A stretch of DNA of 64,000 bases from positions 34,919 to 98,918 of the forward strand of contig JAXGJN010000004.1 of assembly GCA_040770225.1 (NCBI GenBank), read 5' to 3'. Both the position numbers and the translations under genes were made by a program. This stretch comes from Anaerolineaceae bacterium (GTDB lineage Bacteria > Chloroflexota > Anaerolineae > Anaerolineales > Anaerolineaceae). Under the pieces are notes generated by a model. That model was not told the DNA's origin. It was given only the letters and a program-made list of their open reading frames with translations, and did not search any database. Positions within the stretch are counted from its first letter, which is position 1, and every line of letters begins with the position of its first letter. Positions 52,103 to 56,421 of the stretch are shown here, piece by piece.

Positions 52103-52513
52103 TCAGAGGGCTTTCTTCAAGGCTTTCAGTTGGTTTCCGAATGACAGACCTTCAAAAGGAATAATGTAATGATGCATATATGGAACAAGACCTTCACGAT
52201 ACTTTTCGCCGGCAAGGAAGATAATTTCGTCCTGATCAAGGTCCGCATACTTTCGAAGCTCTGAAATCACTCCAACCGACCAAGCTTTTCTCTCGGAAGC
52301 TGGCATCTGGTTAAGAGTTTTTTCGTATGGGGCAATACGATCATCTAATCGTAGTAATCCATACTTGGCAGAGAGTATAAAGATATGATTGGGTTTCATT
52401 TTCTTTGCATAAGCCAGGTTTTTACTGAACAGATCGCTAATGTAAAGATCCTTCGCTTTTGCAGGGTGATCCAATTTCGTTTTGACGCATGAAATCAAGA
52501 CAATTCGCTTCAC
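52103..52513 (-). CDS. DUF6884-like (YaaA/DUF328-related) protein
   Basis: VLISCVKTKLD and ILSAKYGLLRLDDRIAPYEKTL resemble YaaA ILISPAKTLD / [21 protein letters not shown]. GTG 52513 overlaps the upstream TGA (GTGA). Alternative TTG start at 52531. Confidence 0.6.
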   Translation of the reverse strand: MKRIVLISCVKTKLDHPAKAKDLYISDLFSKNLAYAKKMKPNHIFILSAKYGLLRLDDRIAPYEKTLNQMPASERKAWSVGVISELRKYADLDQDEIIFLAGEKYREGLVPYMHHYIIPFEGLSFGNQLKALKKAL

Positions 52514-53244
52514 AATCCAATCCTTTCGCAACAGGAATTAAGAGGACATCCGGCACACTCCGGATTAGTCGGGTGACACCAATTTCTACCAATTGACCAT
52601 AGCGGTCCGTCAATTGCACCAGGGTAAGAAGGGCTAATCTGGCGAGCGGCGATGATCGCTTCCATTTCGTTAATAGAAGGAGAAACACCGAGACGATAGA
52701 GGACTCGCATCGTATGGACATCCGGTTTAATATCCATGTTCCTGTAATCTAAGTCTGTGAAAGTGATTTGATATAAACCTTCTATCAGAACGAGACTCAT
52801 ATTAGCGATACCGCTGCCAACGCCATAGACAGACAGAAGAGTGCGTTTGACGTCCATTGCTGACCGATCTTTCCAGATGTTTTCAGCACGACCCGAGAAA
52901 TTGTCTACGACGATCCTGCAAATATCATAAAAGGTATGCGGCGCAGCATTGGTATAGCGGGGTTGCCGAGGAAGATGATCAAAAAGGGAAGTTATCTGAT
53001 CAAGGCTGAGGTTGTAAAAACGTAGTGGATCATAATGACCCACCTGTTGGAAGATCCAATAAGGAATGGTCCAAATAATTTCTGCTTTAGTGCCCCGATC
53101 AAGACAGCAGGCAGAGATGAAAGCAAAACTGTTTTCATGGATGAGCTTGATTGCTTCAGGGCATTTCGCAAGAGTGAGTTCTTCCTGGTCAAAGATGGTT
53201 TTGTAATGCAAAAGGGCATTCAGAATCGACTGGTAGGCGGGCAT
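52510..53244 (-). CDS. HhH-GPD superfamily DNA glycosylase with EndoIII-type [4Fe-4S] loop
   Basis: HhH VYGVGSGIANM, catalytic-Asp context PDVHTMRV, Cys ladder CHPTNPECAGCPLNSCC. Confidence 0.8.
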   Translation of the reverse strand: MPAYQSILNALLHYKTIFDQEELTLAKCPEAIKLIHENSFAFISACCLDRGTKAEIIWTIPYWIFQQVGHYDPLRFYNLSLDQITSLFDHLPRQPRYTNAAPHTFYDICRIVVDNFSGRAENIWKDRSAMDVKRTLLSVYGVGSGIANMSLVLIEGLYQITFTDLDYRNMDIKPDVHTMRVLYRLGVSPSINEMEAIIAARQISPSYPGAIDGPLWSIGRNWCHPTNPECAGCPLNSCCERIGL

Positions 53245-53271
53245 AAAAAATCCTCAATTTATCTCTGTTTT

Positions 53272-56200
53272 TTAGAATTCAATAACTTCTTTTTCTACCT
53301 CAGGATAGAGCTCATCGATTTCTGCCTGGATTTCGATGGTTTTGGCAAGGGCGGTGGCAATGCGAATGTAATGGCGGGGGTCGTCCATGTTCCGCCCTTT
53401 GCGATCTTTGAGGTATTTGTCCATGACCTGGTAACCGCCAATCTGATACTCCCAAATTTCGGGCTCAACACCTTCAAAGTAATGGGTATTGTTGATGTAG
53501 ACACGTTTTTCGCTCGGGTTGTACCTTGGTTTTTCAATGATGTAATTGTCATCGCTCCCCTGGTATTTGACGGTAGGGTTGTCGAGTTCATGGCTCTTAA
53601 TCAAATGAAGATCGATGAGACGTTTTCCCAGGGCTGCCATTAATTGGAAAGTTCTATTCGAATTTGGAAACGGTATACGGGGGAAATCCACTTTCAGGAA
53701 ATCAAAGTACCTTACCCGATAAGTATTACAAAAAAGTATTGCATAAACGTATCGTAATACTAACTCTGGTCTTAATAAAGAACTGTAGTTATCTTTCAAA
53801 TGATCATAAACGTCTTTGGATAAGTTATTTTCCCTTCCTGATTGTTGCGAACTAAACAAATTTGGTTTCTCTTCGTCTTCATAGAGGTAGAGTGGGAATA
53901 GATATCCAATTTCACTAGTTTTATTAGAAACAAAACAGCTTTCTATAATCTTATTAGAAATTAAACAGTGTTGCCATGTTTCGCCGGACTTAACCTGTCT
54001 GACTGTAGCAATTCCAATGTTGTCCTTAAACATGTGATGCATGACTTCCTGTCGACCCCAGTCAACCATGTCTGGTGTATAGTAAACAGCCCTGTGGTCA
54101 AATGGTCGATAAAGGATTTTCGAATAATAAGTGTCCCAATTTACATCAGACGATAATTTTTTTCTCGCCTCAGATAATTTCCAACCTCTTGTGTCTTTTA
54201 ACCCGTACGTGCCTTCAATAAAATCATCTGGCAATGATAAGTCTCGAAATTGGATCATTTTCAAGCGCAATTCGTGAATATTAAAGTCTATAACAAATTT
54301 ATCTCTTGCTGTCACTATGCCAGTTACATATATAGGAAATATCGTGTTTACTGAAAGCCATTTATTGTAGTGTTCAATCTGAGAGGTGTTGCGAGGGATT
54401 AAAAAATAGAATGGTGGATTTGCATCAATATTCTGATATTTTGCTGAATTAAAATCAACGGAGGATAGCCATAGGTATTTTTCATTCCGCAAGCCAAACA
54501 AATCAACATGTCGCCTTATTGGTGTTTTTGGCATTCTATTTTTTATGAATAAGGCAATTGCCACCCCTGTTCTAATGTCAAAAACATTCTCATCTTTGCT
54601 ACCATCGGGCGCCGTTTCTTTTTTGAGACTGTTACCATGTAGATCAAGAATGTAGATCTCATCAAAGGTTTTCATTAAAGACTGGCGCATGCCGCGAAAG
54701 GTGGGGTTATCCAGATAGGCATGGTTGGTGATCATAGCGACTATGCCCTTGCCGGCTTTTTGGATCTTCCATTGGGCAAAGCGCAGAAACTTGACATAAT
54801 CATCCTGCAACCAAACTTTTCTCTCCCCAAGAGGTTTGCCATCAACTGTGTAATAACTTTGAGCACCGTCAATATCTTGTTTCAGTAACTTTTCAGTCCA
54901 TTCGTTGATATTTGAAGATATCCCAGAATAAGGAGGGTTGCCCATAATTACAAGAACTGGATCACGTTTGACCTTGCCTGCCAGACGGCTCTCGATGCTA
55001 AGAGAACTGACACCTGGAATCTCAATCTGGGCGATATCTTCCATCTCGAGGGTATTGGTCAGGTAAAGCTGGAAAGCATCATCGCCTTCAAGACGGTAAC
55101 CGAGAGACTCCAACAGAAAGCTCATTTTCATATGCCCGATGGCGTAGGGAGCCATCATCAACTCAAGTGCATAATAGTTTTTCAAAACCTGGTTGCGAAT
55201 AAAATCCCTCTTTCCGCCCTCACCATATTTCTCAACAAACTCTTTGACTGCCAGCTTGATGGCTTCAGCAGGGAAAGTAAGTGTGCCAGCAGCGGGATCC
55301 AGCACGGTTACAGATGGATCAGCCAGCCCATCGGGAAGGTTGAAGCGCGTTTTAAGCAGATGATGTACGGAGTTGACGATGTATTTGACCACAGGTTCGG
55401 GGGTGTAATAGACCCCGCGCTTTTCCCTGGTGGTTGGGTCGTACTGATTGAGGAAGGTCTCGTAAAAATGGACAATGGGATCTTCGCCTTTGCCTTCCCT
55501 GTAATATTTGTCGAGAATACTGTTGATATCAGCGGCATTGAGAATAGCAGCGATATCATCAACAATCACTTCCATATGCGGTGAGGGTTTGCCTAACGAA
55601 ATGAAGTGGAAGACCTCTCGCAGAACGCCAATAGAGTGGGGAATTCTTTCATAGGCTAAGCGACGGCTGAATTCACCTTCTGTGCGAGTGCGGGCAGCAA
55701 AAAGTCCATAGGTAATGGTCTGTGAATAGAGGTCAGCAAACTGTTCTGGTGTCAGGCTTGGGATGAGATATTTTTGAAAGGCTTTATAAAATCCAAAAAT
55801 ATCACCCTTGCCTTCTTCAGATTCCTTCAATTCTTCTGCAACCACCTGATCGCGCAAGAAGCGGGTGCGTTTAGCAAGCTCGACAGCCAGGCTTTCTGCA
55901 GTGAATGTCTTTGGAAGTTTAAATCCAAAAAATTGATTGGCTATCTTTTCAAAAGCTTCGATGTTTTCGAGCTGAGGGGTTGTTCTGAGCTTCTGAGCAG
56001 TAAAGCGTCGCCCAACGACAGCTCTTTCGATCTCCTGACCATTGCGGTAAAGTCGGAACTCGTAAAAGTCAGTCAGGATCAGATTGGGGAATGTATTTAA
56101 GTAGCGTTGGAGCTGTTCTGTGGTCTCAATATGATCCAGGTTGGTGCCAGGAATTTTTGCTTCAATGTATCCAACAACAAAATGATCGCCATCCCAGACA

Positions 56201-56421
56201 CGAAAATCAGGGTTGCCGGCTTCAGTTTGTTTGGGAAGGATGGTAACTTTAGTTTTACGACCTTTATCCAGGGGAAAATCGGTAAATAAATCTTTCAGTG
56301 AGTCATAATAAGATTCTTCACGGGCATCACCCTGCATAGTGGTGGATGCAATGGATTTCAGGTACGCAGAAAGCAATTTTTTCATTACAGGACCCCGATT
56401 CTGATTGATGATGTTCCTCAA
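53272..56421 (-). CDS. single-chain type IIG/IIL restriction endonuclease-N6-adenine methyltransferase (MmeI-like)
   Basis: NPDFRVWDGDHFVVGYIEAK (D-X12-EXK), VLDPAAGTLTF, IMGNPPYSG, C-terminal GGYQVMDKYLKDRKGR. TTG start at 56421; alternative ATG at 56385. Confidence 0.85.
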   Translation of the reverse strand: MRNIINQNRGPVMKKLLSAYLKSIASTTMQGDAREESYYDSLKDLFTDFPLDKGRKTKVTILPKQTEAGNPDFRVWDGDHFVVGYIEAKIPGTNLDHIETTEQLQRYLNTFPNLILTDFYEFRLYRNGQEIERAVVGRRFTAQKLRTTPQLENIEAFEKIANQFFGFKLPKTFTAESLAVELAKRTRFLRDQVVAEELKESEEGKGDIFGFYKAFQKYLIPSLTPEQFADLYSQTITYGLFAARTRTEGEFSRRLAYERIPHSIGVLREVFHFISLGKPSPHMEVIVDDIAAILNAADINSILDKYYREGKGEDPIVHFYETFLNQYDPTTREKRGVYYTPEPVVKYIVNSVHHLLKTRFNLPDGLADPSVTVLDPAAGTLTFPAEAIKLAVKEFVEKYGEGGKRDFIRNQVLKNYYALELMMAPYAIGHMKMSFLLESLGYRLEGDDAFQLYLTNTLEMEDIAQIEIPGVSSLSIESRLAGKVKRDPVLVIMGNPPYSGISSNINEWTEKLLKQDIDGAQSYYTVDGKPLGERKVWLQDDYVKFLRFAQWKIQKAGKGIVAMITNHAYLDNPTFRGMRQSLMKTFDEIYILDLHGNSLKKETAPDGSKDENVFDIRTGVAIALFIKNRMPKTPIRRHVDLFGLRNEKYLWLSSVDFNSAKYQNIDANPPFYFLIPRNTSQIEHYNKWLSVNTIFPIYVTGIVTARDKFVIDFNIHELRLKMIQFRDLSLPDDFIEGTYGLKDTRGWKLSEARKKLSSDVNWDTYYSKILYRPFDHRAVYYTPDMVDWGRQEVMHHMFKDNIGIATVRQVKSGETWQHCLISNKIIESCFVSNKTSEIGYLFPLYLYEDEEKPNLFSSQQSGRENNLSKDVYDHLKDNYSSLLRPELVLRYVYAILFCNTYRVRYFDFLKVDFPRIPFPNSNRTFQLMAALGKRLIDLHLIKSHELDNPTVKYQGSDDNYIIEKPRYNPSEKRVYINNTHYFEGVEPEIWEYQIGGYQVMDKYLKDRKGRNMDDPRHYIRIATALAKTIEIQAEIDELYPEVEKEVIEF

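Follow-up and report, generated by a model that had tools for sequence, protein, structure and literature searches.

A conserved pair of HhH-GPD glycosylase and DUF6884 genes beside exchangeable restriction modules: a possible base-excision defence against modified phage DNA

Derivatives of 7-deazaguanine such as dPreQ0 make DNA resist ordinary restriction. The HhH glycosylases Dag1 and Dag2, together with 17 further families, are reported to protect against 7-deazaguanine phages (10.1101/2025.10.29.685425), and in the Brig3-BapA system a helper enzyme turns a hypermodified base into a form that the glycosylase can excise. The glycosylase described here differs from the Dag enzymes, which act alone and of which at least Dag1 is bifunctional, in that it is predicted to be monofunctional and is encoded with a partner; the combination of helper enzyme and glycosylase in Brig3-BapA is a precedent for the two-step role that we propose for this pair. 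The partner belongs to DUF6884, the family of DpdC (PMC12235509), an enzyme that alone converts dPreQ0-DNA to dADG-DNA in vitro (PMC10164549).

At positions 52103-56421 of the window (the whole 64,000-nucleotide stretch of Anaerolineaceae DNA analysed), three minus-strand genes in the same orientation encode a type IIG/IIL restriction-modification (RM) enzyme, an Fe-S glycosylase of 244 aa with the EndoIII fold, and a member of the DUF6884 family. The RM reading frame (53272-56421, minus strand; 1049 aa) ends in TAA and is followed by a 27-nt spacer (53245-53271, minus strand; AAAACAGAGATAAATTGAGGATTTTTT), in which a GAGGA ribosome-binding site, read directly in the sequence, precedes the ATG of the glycosylase gene (52510-53244, minus strand). 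The DUF6884 reading frame (52103-52531, minus strand) has two possible starts, a GTG at 52513 giving 136 aa and a TTG at 52531 giving 142 aa; the GTG overlaps the TGA of the glycosylase gene (GTGA), and this 4-nt overlap is the usual layout among relatives. A terminator-like hairpin with a T-run (52046-52067, minus strand) ends the operon, and the three-gene unit has no internal terminator. The layout supports a single transcription unit in this lineage, and every feature of the minus-strand unit given in the original prediction, including the spacer, the overlap and the hairpin, is present, with the exception of the spacing of the RM nuclease motif.

Judged by its sequence, the RM protein is a single-chain type IIG/IIL enzyme with an N-terminal PD-(D/E)XK nuclease, a gamma-class N6A methyltransferase and a C-terminal target-recognition domain. 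It matches the PADLOC model REase_MTase_IIG (E 1.5e-263), the Pfam families Type_ISP_C (2.2e-78) and N6_Mtase, and the PDB sequences of DrdV (7lo5, residues 20-940, 8e-42) and LlaBIII (4xqk, residues 314-1018, 6e-46). The SAM motif (LDPAAGTLTF at residue 374), NPPY (residue 495) and the C-terminal signature GGYQVMDKYLKDR (residue 995) were all located in the translation as predicted. The nuclease motif is likewise present, but as D77-X9-E87-A-K89 rather than the proposed D-X12-E-X-K: no Asp gives the X12 spacing (D72 yields X14 and D79 yields X7), and the MmeI nuclease motif has the same X9 spacing.

Compared across loci, the conserved unit is the pair of glycosylase and DUF6884 genes, which stands beside interchangeable restriction modules, and not a three-gene system. 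Of 56 informative non-redundant clusters, 49 have a DUF6884/YaaA-like gene directly beside the glycosylase gene: in 34 it lies downstream on that strand, in 9 upstream and in 5 convergently, and in 1 the two are fused. Such adjacency would arise by chance with P < 1e-90. Of 72 glycosylase partners, 66 match Pfam DUF6884; 5-7 clusters lack the partner. Furthermore, among the 150 best 50%-identity representatives of the glycosylase family, 28 combine both domains in a single chain, as does the 410-aa fusion of locus L099, and PADLOC DpdC models match some of the fusions with E-values as low as 4e-35. The linkage anticipated for the two small genes is thus real, and the pair is widespread, sometimes fused and uncharacterised. 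No paper describing the pairing was found in the literature, and in this respect the module may still be called undescribed; its parts may not, because the DUF6884 gene is already listed in PADLOC as PDC-M57A, an untested candidate defence protein (Payne et al. bioRxiv 10.1101/2024.01.29.577857), and HhH anti-phage glycosylases were reported in 2025.

The RM gene, which had been put forward as a conserved partner, is instead a facultative neighbour of the pair. Of the 41 loci whose upstream sequence is long enough to judge, just 2 have an RM homologue there, and most pairs have no methyltransferase nearby. The near-identical sister locus L025 keeps the pair and carries an MTase-Mrr gene, an NmeDI_C nuclease gene and a 162-aa gene in the RM slot. 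It is therefore very improbable that type IIL RM enzyme, glycosylase and DUF6884 protein form, as originally modelled, an obligate three-component system, which might for instance work through m6A-controlled base excision. The operon-like spacing without an internal terminator would suit such a system, as would the homologous RM gene that L024 and L011, members of two separate glycosylase subclades, have at the corresponding place; type IIG enzymes, moreover, are not known to depend on partners. In blastn synteny comparisons the homology to L025 starts at window position 53249, in the 27-nt spacer; L024 has the identical spacer, and the spacers of L025, L008 and L009 are unrelated to it. From these sequences the spacer is a recombination boundary, and the strain-level cassette swap falls precisely at the 5' boundary of the glycosylase gene. 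The upstream flank of the variable slot (56460-56654, minus strand) is 89-96% identical to L025 and L024 (blastn synteny), and a part of about 130 nt is found in two copies in L025 and in a single copy, downstream of the pair, in L008; this flank may be a promoter or recombination region. Within the RM protein, residues ~600-800 share 28-54% identity with the L024 allele, compared with more than 90% over the rest.

The glycosylase is a divergent Fe-S HhH-GPD enzyme of the EndoIII/MutY fold. A Pfam scan of the 244-aa protein returned no match, and it scores 46.9 bits against TIGR03252 (cutoff 136.5). The original prediction had allowed that it might cluster with housekeeping Nth/MutY proteins; its bit scores fall far short of the cutoffs, at 18 for TIGR01083 (211.7 required) and 16 for TIGR01084 (286.5 required), and rule out such an orthologue. 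The family profile nevertheless aligns full-length to EndoIII (1p59, 5e-7), and the top Foldseek matches of the AlphaFold model (pLDDT 92.6) are EndoIII (1orn; E 3e-6, TM 0.62), MutY/MUTYH and Mig (1kea), at 16-20% identity. The cluster motif reads C223-X6-C230-X2-C233-X5-C239, and Asp175, within IKPDVHT, occupies an invariant column of the family alignment. The HhH motif is GVGSGIAN, with Gly145 at the site of the Schiff-base Lys of EndoIII, and the enzyme, which has no lyase Lys there, is predicted to be monofunctional. No glycosylase homologues were found in phage collections, as would be expected of a host weapon.

The third protein matches Pfam DUF6884 (5.1e-46) and, weakly, the YaaA family H2O2_YaaD (2.7e-5), and the single significant PDB fold match of its structure model (pLDDT 95.5) is YaaA (5caj), a protein linked to oxidative stress; the proposed DUF6884/YaaA-like assignment is upheld. 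The PADLOC model PDC-M57A matches at 6.7e-55 and the DpdC models weakly and partially, at E about 1e-5. The tie between DUF6884 and DpdC was absent from the original prediction. Among phage homologues, gp32 of HRTV-29 overlaps DpdA, a phiFN37 protein (46% identity over 96% of the query) is flanked by genes for a TGT/DpdA-like protein and a queuosine-precursor transporter, and Rosebush gp8 lies near TGT, QueC and FolE genes; their adjacency suggests a DpdC-like role for these small phage proteins. The conserved motifs C-x3-K and (I/L)SAxYG are invariant in the DpdA-adjacent phage homologues, in GIY-YIG-linked homologues and in the window protein, where the Cys and Lys are residues 9 and 13.

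Since this gene adjacency mirrors the DpdA-DpdC arrangement of phages and dpd islands, the pair might conceivably write on the cell's own DNA, the HhH-GPD enzyme installing or exchanging a 7-deazaguanine-type base that the DUF6884 protein matures, thereby marking self for nucleases; nucleases with no obvious cognate methylase (C1, NmeDI_C) do precede the pair in several loci. We consider this very improbable: we know of no HhH-GPD enzyme that performs base exchange, genes for preQ0 synthesis, TGT and DpdB are not present at the pair loci, the RM enzyme of the window has its own methylase, and the alternative GIY-YIG partner is a nuclease rather than a writer. The weak EVE-like reader match of the C1 nuclease, in turn, suggests a modified-DNA target.

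In 4 of 5 loci sampled, DUF6884 proteins 57-62% identical to the window protein have a GIY_YIG_3 nuclease as their partner, with gene overlaps of 4-8 nt, and one such pair lies beside GmrSD and Schlafen-like genes; in the tree, the GIY-YIG-linked proteins are interspersed among the glycosylase-linked ones. Interchangeable DNA-damaging partners, together with small, overlapping and mobile genes, the island location and a HicB-like gene directly upstream of the pair in L108, would be consistent with a toxin-antidote pair for addiction or abortive infection, in which the DUF6884 protein restrains the glycosylase (or, in the sister systems, the nuclease) until infection or loss of the element. This is nonetheless improbable, as frequent single-chain fusions (28/150) and a varying gene order are unusual for toxin-antitoxin pairs, and the DUF6884 protein keeps an enzyme-like invariant pocket in common with the DpdA-linked phage proteins.

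A role in DNA repair or host protection is unlikely, though less so than the readings above. Here the glycosylase would clear the host genome of a class of bases that are damaged or misincorporated, the DUF6884 protein would bind, shield or process the abasic site, a step that a monofunctional glycosylase cannot perform itself, and islands and RM systems would carry the pair to limit collateral DNA damage. In B. subtilis, pull-downs on abasic and ribonucleotide lesions enriched YfjM, a DUF6884 protein (PMC10220248), the Pfam authors propose a repair role for DUF6884, the glycosylase has no lyase Lys, SRAP (L005) and AP endonuclease 2 (L109) genes lie near some pairs, and many loci have housekeeping flanks, for example ThrRS, GlmS and GatCAB. 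However, the pair is patchy, island-borne, low in GC and swapped between strains along with restriction cassettes, and its glycosylase stands well apart from the Nth, MutY and TIGR03252 families. In defence islands, the nearest relatives of its DUF6884 protein have a GIY-YIG nuclease as partner, which is hard to square with abasic-site shielding, and DpdC, the sole characterised DUF6884 enzyme, acts by modifying a base, not on abasic sites (PMC10164549).

We therefore tentatively favour, at somewhat less than even confidence, a base-excision defence cassette against modified, probably 7-deazaguanine, phage DNA, whose substrate, order of action and phenotype we infer; the 7-deazaguanine specificity is suggested by the family tie of the partner and by analogy. 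Of the original hypotheses, this corresponds to the first, in which the pair targets phage DNA that evades restriction through its modified bases; it is the one that our evidence favours. It draws on the conserved and sometimes fused pair, the phage homologues in 7-deazaguanine clusters, the interchangeable GIY_YIG_3 partner, the absence of the glycosylase from phage collections, the tRNA island, the PDC-M57A match, cassette swapping, RM juxtaposition in two subclades and the Dag1/Dag2 and Brig3-BapA precedents. Defence-type neighbours elsewhere include type IIG RM, MTase-Mrr, NmeDI_C nuclease (weak EVE match), BREX, UvrD/GajB-like, REase-ARP and SoFic genes; with a minority of the neighbours scanned, a recognised defence gene adjoins the pair in about 10-13 of 33 longer non-redundant loci. 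This proportion counts against defence, as do the weak, partial DpdC match, the repair-like associations of YfjM, YaaA, SRAP and AP endonuclease 2, the housekeeping flanks, the partnerless clusters and the comparison with the Dag glycosylases, which work without a partner.

In such a defence, the DUF6884 protein, whose gene is translationally coupled to that of the glycosylase, would flip out and recognise the modified base, most likely a 7-deazaguanine derivative such as dPreQ0, and might also alter it chemically through its conserved Cys/Lys pocket, on the model of the hydration of the dPreQ0 nitrile to the amide dADG by DpdC. The glycosylase would next excise the base, and clustered abasic sites would then stop replication and break the DNA. 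The cassette keeps its place on the downstream side of a restriction module that can be exchanged; as the window has a type IIL RM enzyme there, with unmodified DNA as its target, the operon would cover unmodified as well as modified invaders.

The operon was predicted to sit at the edge of a tRNA-Leu island, and this island can now be bounded. The tRNA-Leu gene (anticodon TAA; 59328-59411, minus strand; ARAGORN, Rfam tRNA 56.4 bits) is the integration target. A repeat search of the window found a direct repeat that takes in the 3'-terminal 25 nt of the tRNA and the terminator behind it: the proximal copy (59303-59352) overlaps the 3' end of the intact tRNA gene and its terminator, and a degenerate, att-like distal copy (52044-52093; 78% over 50 nt) forms the island boundary, delimiting a low-GC island of ~7.2 kb. 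Because the distal copy duplicates the tRNA 3' end and terminator, the hairpin and T-run that end the operon are the duplicated tRNA terminator. Besides the pair and the RM gene, the island carries an XRE/Cro-type HTH protein (57265-57999, plus strand; Pfam HTH_3, 1e-12) and, adjoining the tRNA, a tandem-GNAT acetyltransferase (58182-59138, minus strand; Pfam Acetyltransf_1, 8.4e-15, in two stretches).

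As originally predicted, three co-oriented minus-strand genes are tightly arranged, with the 1049-aa restriction-modification (RM) ORF (53272-56421) separated by a 27-nt spacer containing GAGGA from the 244-aa glycosylase ORF (52510-53244), whose TGA stop codon is in turn overlapped by the GTG (GTGA) of the DUF6884 gene (52103-52531; the product has 142 aa if read from a TTG codon and 136 aa if read from the GTG at 52513). The hairpin and T-run at the end of the operon (52067-52046, minus strand), which had been read as its terminator, are present but are a duplicated tRNA terminator. 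Directly after the DUF6884 stop codon lies a direct repeat (52044-52093) that is 78% identical to 59303-59352, a segment made up of the last 25 nt of tRNA-Leu(TAA) (59328-59411) and the terminator of this tRNA. By this repeat of the tRNA 3'-end, the operon is identified as cargo at the distal end of a ~7.2-kb island (52094-59327); together with the repeat at the far boundary, the atypical composition (GC 0.40-0.46 within the island versus 0.48-0.56 outside) is that of a tRNA-targeted element. The other two sizeable island ORFs encode an XRE-type HTH protein and a tandem GNAT, which leaves no ORF of integrase size, and because no integrase was found among the sizeable ORFs the island looks old and degenerate. 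An Rfam scan of 51-60 kb of the window returned the tRNA only, and a scan for sigma-70 promoters was uninformative, such sites being no more frequent than in shuffled sequence. Two 69-nt direct repeats with 74% identity (51489-51557 and 51655-51723), built of reiterated TTTACAC/TTTGCAC units, fall within the intergenic region from the island boundary to a 454-aa gene.

The first gene does encode a single-chain RM enzyme, matching the PADLOC model REase_MTase_IIG (1.5e-263) and the Pfam families Type_ISP_C and N6_Mtase, although its nuclease motif is D77-X9-E87-A-K89 rather than the D-X12-E-X-K first reported. Among PDB sequences, DrdV is matched over residues 20-940 and LlaBIII in the methyltransferase and target-recognition (TRD) part. 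Nuclease, N6A-methyltransferase and TRD are thus carried in one chain, with a PD-(D/E)XK motif, LDPAAGTLTF, NPPY and GGYQVMDKYLKDR, and on these features the protein is classed as an ordinary type IIG/IIL (MmeI/DrdV-like) enzyme. The D-X9-EXK and NPPY motifs and a C-terminal GGYxVxxKYLKDR signature are common to MmeI/DrdV-type IIL enzymes and type ISP enzymes (LlaGI/LlaBIII), the latter differing in having a helicase, which the window protein lacks; the MmeI-specific domain models of Pfam are not matched at E <= 0.01. Compared with the allele of L024, a locus of a closely related strain (L numbers denote loci carrying glycosylase or DUF6884 relatives), the RM protein is >90% identical, but identity falls to 28-54% at residues ~600-800, and nucleotide homology is lost over the corresponding stretch (window 54046-54565 versus L024:2092-2618). 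The confinement of the drop to these residues points to a recent swap of TRD specificity between closely related strains, as would be expected of an active RM enzyme.

The conserved unit does not include the RM gene. Of the 41 loci in which 3.2 kb or more of upstream sequence is available, only L024 and L011 (2 of 41) have an RM homologue upstream of the glycosylase and DUF6884 genes (hereafter, the pair), and the obligate three-gene defence system that had been proposed from the tight coupling in the window is very unlikely indeed. The variability of this position is illustrated by L025, a near-identical sister locus from the same metagenome as L024, whose DNA is 92-97% identical to the window on both flanks (homology blocks at window 56654-56474 and 53249-49809) and resumes homology 5 nt before the glycosylase ATG. 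In place of the RM gene, L025 carries an N6/N4 methyltransferase-Mrr-like fusion, an NmeDI_C nuclease with a weakly EVE-like N-terminus and a gene for a 162-aa protein, here called C0. In the clade nearest the window, C0-glycosylase-DUF6884 is the common core, present in 11 non-redundant loci, and is usually preceded by the NmeDI_C nuclease. The two RM-type arrangements fall in separate glycosylase subclades, surrounded in each case by C0-type loci, so that a homologous type IIG gene was set before the pair at least twice, or was moved there by recombination. The retention of a fixed accessory cassette while the adjoining restriction module is exchanged between strains is informative for the evolution of layered defence.

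The window has no C0 gene; in L025:233-4059, L017:6364-7974, L001:7494-7982 and another 8 loci it lies directly 5' of the glycosylase gene. Pfam, PADLOC and a PDB profile search all gave no match to C0; its sequence (TDILCSN...IQVKT) suggests a small, degenerate PD-(D/E)xK-like fold, in which the acidic and Lys positions vary. Just 5' of the RM gene, a non-coding element of ~130 nt (window 56460-56594) recurs with 77-96% identity twice in tandem in L025 (1-181 and 221-350) and, as a single copy 3' of the pair, in L008 (4419-4547). It matches no Rfam family and may be a recombination or regulatory element bordering the variable slot.

Elsewhere the pair adjoins BREX genes and a UvrD/GajB-like helicase, or SoFic, or housekeeping genes, or stands beside a UvrD and a REase-ARP nuclease in a split Mg-chelatase-family gene. 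A recognised defence gene accompanies the pair in at least ~10-13 of the 33 longer loci, a count made without a matched control. The split is seen in L001 (1787-6429) and also in L002-L004, where a Mg-chelatase (ComM-like) gene appears to be interrupted by a 921-aa UvrD-like helicase and the pair: ChlI/Mg_chelatase fragments flank the helicase gene upstream of the pair, which suggests that a defence island has been inserted. A gene for an SRAP protein (abasic-site crosslinking) adjoins the pair in L005 (9727-10413), and in L109 the gene for AP endonuclease 2 (4026-4814) is close to a DUF6884-GIY-YIG pair; both neighbours are compatible with a relevance of abasic-site handling to these cassettes.

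The conserved unit is the pair itself, and the linkage of the two small genes that the original prediction had submitted to neighbourhood analysis is borne out. A single-sequence search of genome contigs gave 9 close loci, and the broader survey was made by a metagenome scan. Most of the 103 loci with glycosylase relatives (analysed with our own ORF calls, tblastn and HMMs) derive from metagenomes, in which Chloroflexota predominate. Clustering at 90% identity gave 64 clusters, 56 of them informative, and a DUF6884/YaaA-like gene directly adjoins the glycosylase gene in 49 of these 56. Assuming that 1% of genes belong to the DUF6884/YaaA-like family, the probability of such adjacency by chance is P < 1e-90. 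The partner is downstream in a ~138-aa form, usually with a 4-nt overlap, in 17 clusters and in a ~205-aa YaaD-like form in another 17; it is upstream on the same strand in 9, convergent and with an N-terminal DUF7662 domain in 5, and truly fused to the glycosylase in 1 (L099, 410 aa). By Pfam, 66 of 72 distinct partners match DUF6884 and 55 of 72 are YaaA-like; profile drift, suspected at iteration 3 of the iterative DUF6884 search, was ruled out by running Pfam on all partners.

In an exhaustive profile search, the glycosylase family comprises 1624 clusters (50% identity) at E <= 1e-3 and 271 at E <= 1e-30, and in 28 of the best 150 representatives the chain also includes a DUF6884 domain, while others bear DUF7662, DUF7669, DUF4357 or McrB-like domains. 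The DUF6884 fusions emerged only in this search of representatives; homologues of 350-420 aa from the first search had been considered as such fusions, and Pfam found the domain in 0 of 7, one of them having a GNAT domain instead. Taken together, the variable order of the two genes and their many fusions strongly indicate that glycosylase and DUF6884 protein work together. That they do so as a toxin-antidote cassette is improbable. DUF7662 has been attached repeatedly to DUF6884: it is N-terminal in the convergent 261-aa partners (L069:3741-4529, L076, L079, L081, L083, L087) and lies between the DUF6884 and glycosylase domains in the long fusions (P0334 and 11 other fusion proteins).

Since Pfam, PHROGs and PADLOC gave nothing informative on the glycosylase (no Pfam match at E <= 0.01, PF00730 included), its fold was taken from a PDB profile search and from AlphaFold and Foldseek. 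The family profile aligned end to end with endonuclease III (EndoIII), and the model (pLDDT 92.6) is predicted to adopt the two-domain, all-helical EndoIII fold, matching EndoIII, MutY and Mig structures at a TM of ~0.6 and 16-20% identity; in Foldseek, EndoIII 1orn scored E 3e-6 with a TM of 0.62, and MutY, MUTYH and Mig also matched. G141-V142-G143 and D175 are invariant among 47 family members and align to GVGRKTAN and VDTH of EndoIII 1p59, and the cysteines of a [4Fe-4S] loop, Cys-X6-Cys-X2-Cys-X5-Cys (C223, C230, C233, C239), are conserved. Among relatives, HhH-GPD (PF00730) is matched at E <= 0.001 by 13 of 75 multidomain proteins, and some show a weak match to the Pfam family EndIII_4Fe-2S. 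Fold, HhH motif, catalytic Asp and the cysteine loop are thus common to EndoIII, MutY, Mig.MthI and the window protein. The latter, however, lacks the EndoIII Schiff-base Lys and the MutY C-terminal domain and is island-borne rather than a core gene. As Gly145 stands in place of the Lys, a monofunctional glycosylase is predicted. The possibility that the protein clusters with housekeeping Nth or MutY is not borne out, given this replacement and scores far below the NCBIfam cutoffs (TIGR01083, 18.2 bits against 211.7; TIGR01084, 16.2 bits against 286.5), and within the HhH-GPD superfamily it is placed in the Fe-S branch, as an orthologue of neither. The family is a host-side one, essentially absent from the phage collections searched: IMG/VR yielded no match and the GenBank phages a single marginal one.

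The third protein is a member of DUF6884 (PF21818; 5e-46, 156.6 bits against a cutoff of 30) with only a weak match to YaaA; Pfam's authors describe the family as YaaA-like, with the motifs CxxxK and LSAxxG. Both are present, as C9-x3-K13 and ILSAKYG, and invariant, and the predicted structure (pLDDT 95.5) has YaaA 5caj as its sole significant PDB match (Foldseek E 9e-5). The Pfam authors further note that the DUF6884 protein YfjM of B. subtilis binds abasic and ribonucleotide lesions in pull-down experiments (PMC10220248). Together with the SRAP and AP-endonuclease neighbours and the housekeeping flanks of some loci, this binding favours a role of the pair in repair or host protection, which we nevertheless regard as unlikely; were it true, the pair would constitute a new mobile base-excision repair accessory.

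A different connection is provided by DpdC of the Dpd system, which carries a DUF6884 domain (PMC12235509) and needs no other protein to turn dPreQ0-DNA into dADG-DNA in vitro (PMC10164549). Some fusion relatives match the PADLOC DpdC models, down to 4e-35, and the window protein does so weakly and partially (E 1e-5 to 2e-3). Judged from these matches it is of the same family as DpdC and not its orthologue: the PADLOC DpdC profiles span ~310-320 positions compared with ~136 aa here, and DpdC is partnered by DpdA and DpdB, whereas the window protein is partnered by a glycosylase. DpdC, moreover, writes a self-mark, while the pair, as proposed here, would attack or erase. A Dpd-like writer of self-modification is very improbable, and neither a TGT nor a ParB-like gene was found in the island.

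Homologues of the window DUF6884 protein are found in 162 phage-genome records. Several of them are located in or close to DpdA/preQ0 clusters. The homologue of HRTV-29 (genus Dpdavirus) overlaps dpdA; that of Fusobacterium phage phiFN37 (46% identity over 96% of the query) is flanked by TGT/DpdA-like and queuosine-precursor transporter genes; and Rosebush gp8 has TGT, QueC and FolE genes nearby. These phage homologues share the pocket motifs C-x3-K and (I/L)SAxYG and several other positions, without variation, with the window protein and with the remaining classes of partner. The records comprise 135 mycobacteriophages together with Caulobacter, Burkholderia and Microbacterium phages and haloviruses; in Caulobacter phage TMCBR2 and Bradyrhizobium phage BDU-MI-1 the homologues stand amid unannotated genes.

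Among cellular relatives, a word-indexed DUF6884 search gave 1949 matches. Cellular DUF6884 proteins that are 57-62% identical to that of the window are coupled, with a 4-8-nt overlap, to a ~210-aa GIY_YIG_3 protein in 4 of 5 loci sampled, one of which lies amid GmrSD, Schlafen-like and DUF2779 genes. In a neighbour-joining tree without support values, the GIY_YIG_3-linked proteins are interspersed with the glycosylase-linked ones. The loci with this coupling to GIY_YIG_3 (PF26468) are L104:6001-7055, L106, L108 and L109; in L108 a HicB-like gene overlaps the DUF6884 start, and the genes for QueG, TGT and QueA are no more than 5 kb away.

The PADLOC run that had been called for returned the window DUF6884 protein as PDC-M57A (6.7e-55, covering 134 of the 138 positions in the profile). 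The cassette PDC-M57 is an untested candidate made up of two families, such candidates having been predicted from their embedding in RM, BREX or DISARM loci, and appears in the supplement by family codes only, as FAM_03160>>FAM_00294 (10.1101/2024.01.29.577857). This embedding agrees with the setting of the window pair. The PDC-M57B model, in turn, matched neither the glycosylase nor its relatives or the neighbours scanned, and the GIY_YIG_3 partner may be the B component, DUF6884-GIY_YIG_3 then being the actual A+B cassette.

The simplest account of the linkage, the family ties of DUF6884 and the contexts is that the pair is a two-enzyme cassette attacking modified DNA, a reading to which we give nearly even credence. 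In a first step, the DpdC-family protein would flip out, recognise and perhaps chemically convert a modified base, which the family ties suggest would be a 7-deazaguanine such as dPreQ0. In a second, a coupled DNA-damaging effector would act, in the window a monofunctional glycosylase generating abasic sites and in the sister systems a GIY-YIG nuclease. In its place behind a restriction enzyme, the cassette would intercept phages that are protected from restriction by their modifications. Of the hypotheses first offered, that of modified phage DNA escaping restriction is therefore the one retained, in a more specific form, with a substrate, order of action and phenotype that we infer from the observed linkage, fusions, folds, motifs and contexts.

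Two described systems offer precedents by analogy. Dag proteins (Dag1, Dag2 and further families of the HhH superfamily) excise 7-deazaguanine bases from phage DNA, are reported to protect against 7-deazaguanine phages and are encoded as single-gene integron cassettes of Vibrionaceae (Getz et al., 10.1101/2025.10.29.685425). The window glycosylase has the Dag-like combination of an HhH fold and a mobile, defence-associated context, both being highly diverged HhH proteins encoded in mobile, low-GC, defence-rich DNA and standing apart from housekeeping repair enzymes. Compared by description only, the two differ in that the window protein belongs to the Fe-S EndoIII/MutY branch, lacks the catalytic Lys present in the bifunctional Dag1 (10.1101/2025.10.29.685425), derives from Anaerolineae and is of a family almost always coupled or fused to DUF6884, whereas Dags are single-gene. 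In Brig3-BapA, a two-gene defence operon, a base-flipping helper reworks a hypermodified base, which a monofunctional glycosylase then excises (Mejia-Pitta et al., 10.64898/2026.02.25.707755). This helper-plus-glycosylase operon is the mechanistic template for the proposed model, and there is no homology; identity of the pair with it was rejected, since Brig3 derives from UDG and BapA is a glucosyl hydrolase of the double beta-barrel type, acting on glucosyl-5hmC as the substrate. PabI-type restriction glycosylases were likewise rejected as relatives, having a different fold, and HhH-GPD is absent from the review on them. Anti-phage glycosylases are known from the literature and the PDC-M57A candidate from the database; no paper was found on the glycosylase-DUF6884 pairing, its fusions or the swapping of its partner for GIY-YIG, nor any linking the pairing to 7-deazaguanine chemistry.

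A broader form of the proposal is decidedly tentative. DUF6884/DpdC-family proteins would be the common sensor or converter subunit of widespread, modular, modification-dependent restriction systems. One small base-flipping enzyme, responsible for maturing 7-deazaguanine in the writer clusters of Dpd and phages, would have been turned against such DNA by being coupled or fused to alternative effectors, either an Fe-S HhH glycosylase or a GIY-YIG nuclease (PDC-M57-like loci). The resulting logic of "convert, then excise or cut" would be a second, independent case of that of Brig3-BapA and the first for purine modifications, and the cassettes would be retained downstream of ordinary restriction enzymes, in reserve against phages that resist restriction. 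If the two-enzyme model is true, a large uncharacterised family acquires a role, the enzymology of 7-deazaguanine DNA writing (DpdC) is tied to host countermeasures, the function of PDC-M57A is explained, and a second, unrelated two-step anti-phage mechanism of helper enzyme and glycosylase is added. A glycosylase or reader specific for 7-deazaguanine would also be a useful reagent for mapping such modifications in DNA.

Elsewhere in the window, a second copy of the pair was considered at 8.0-9.5 kb (245-aa and 208-aa ORFs) and ruled out by HMM search. A second low-GC stretch (9000-18000; 0.37-0.44 versus ~0.50 around it) contains a series of ORFs (208-651 aa) on the minus strand and may be another horizontally acquired segment.
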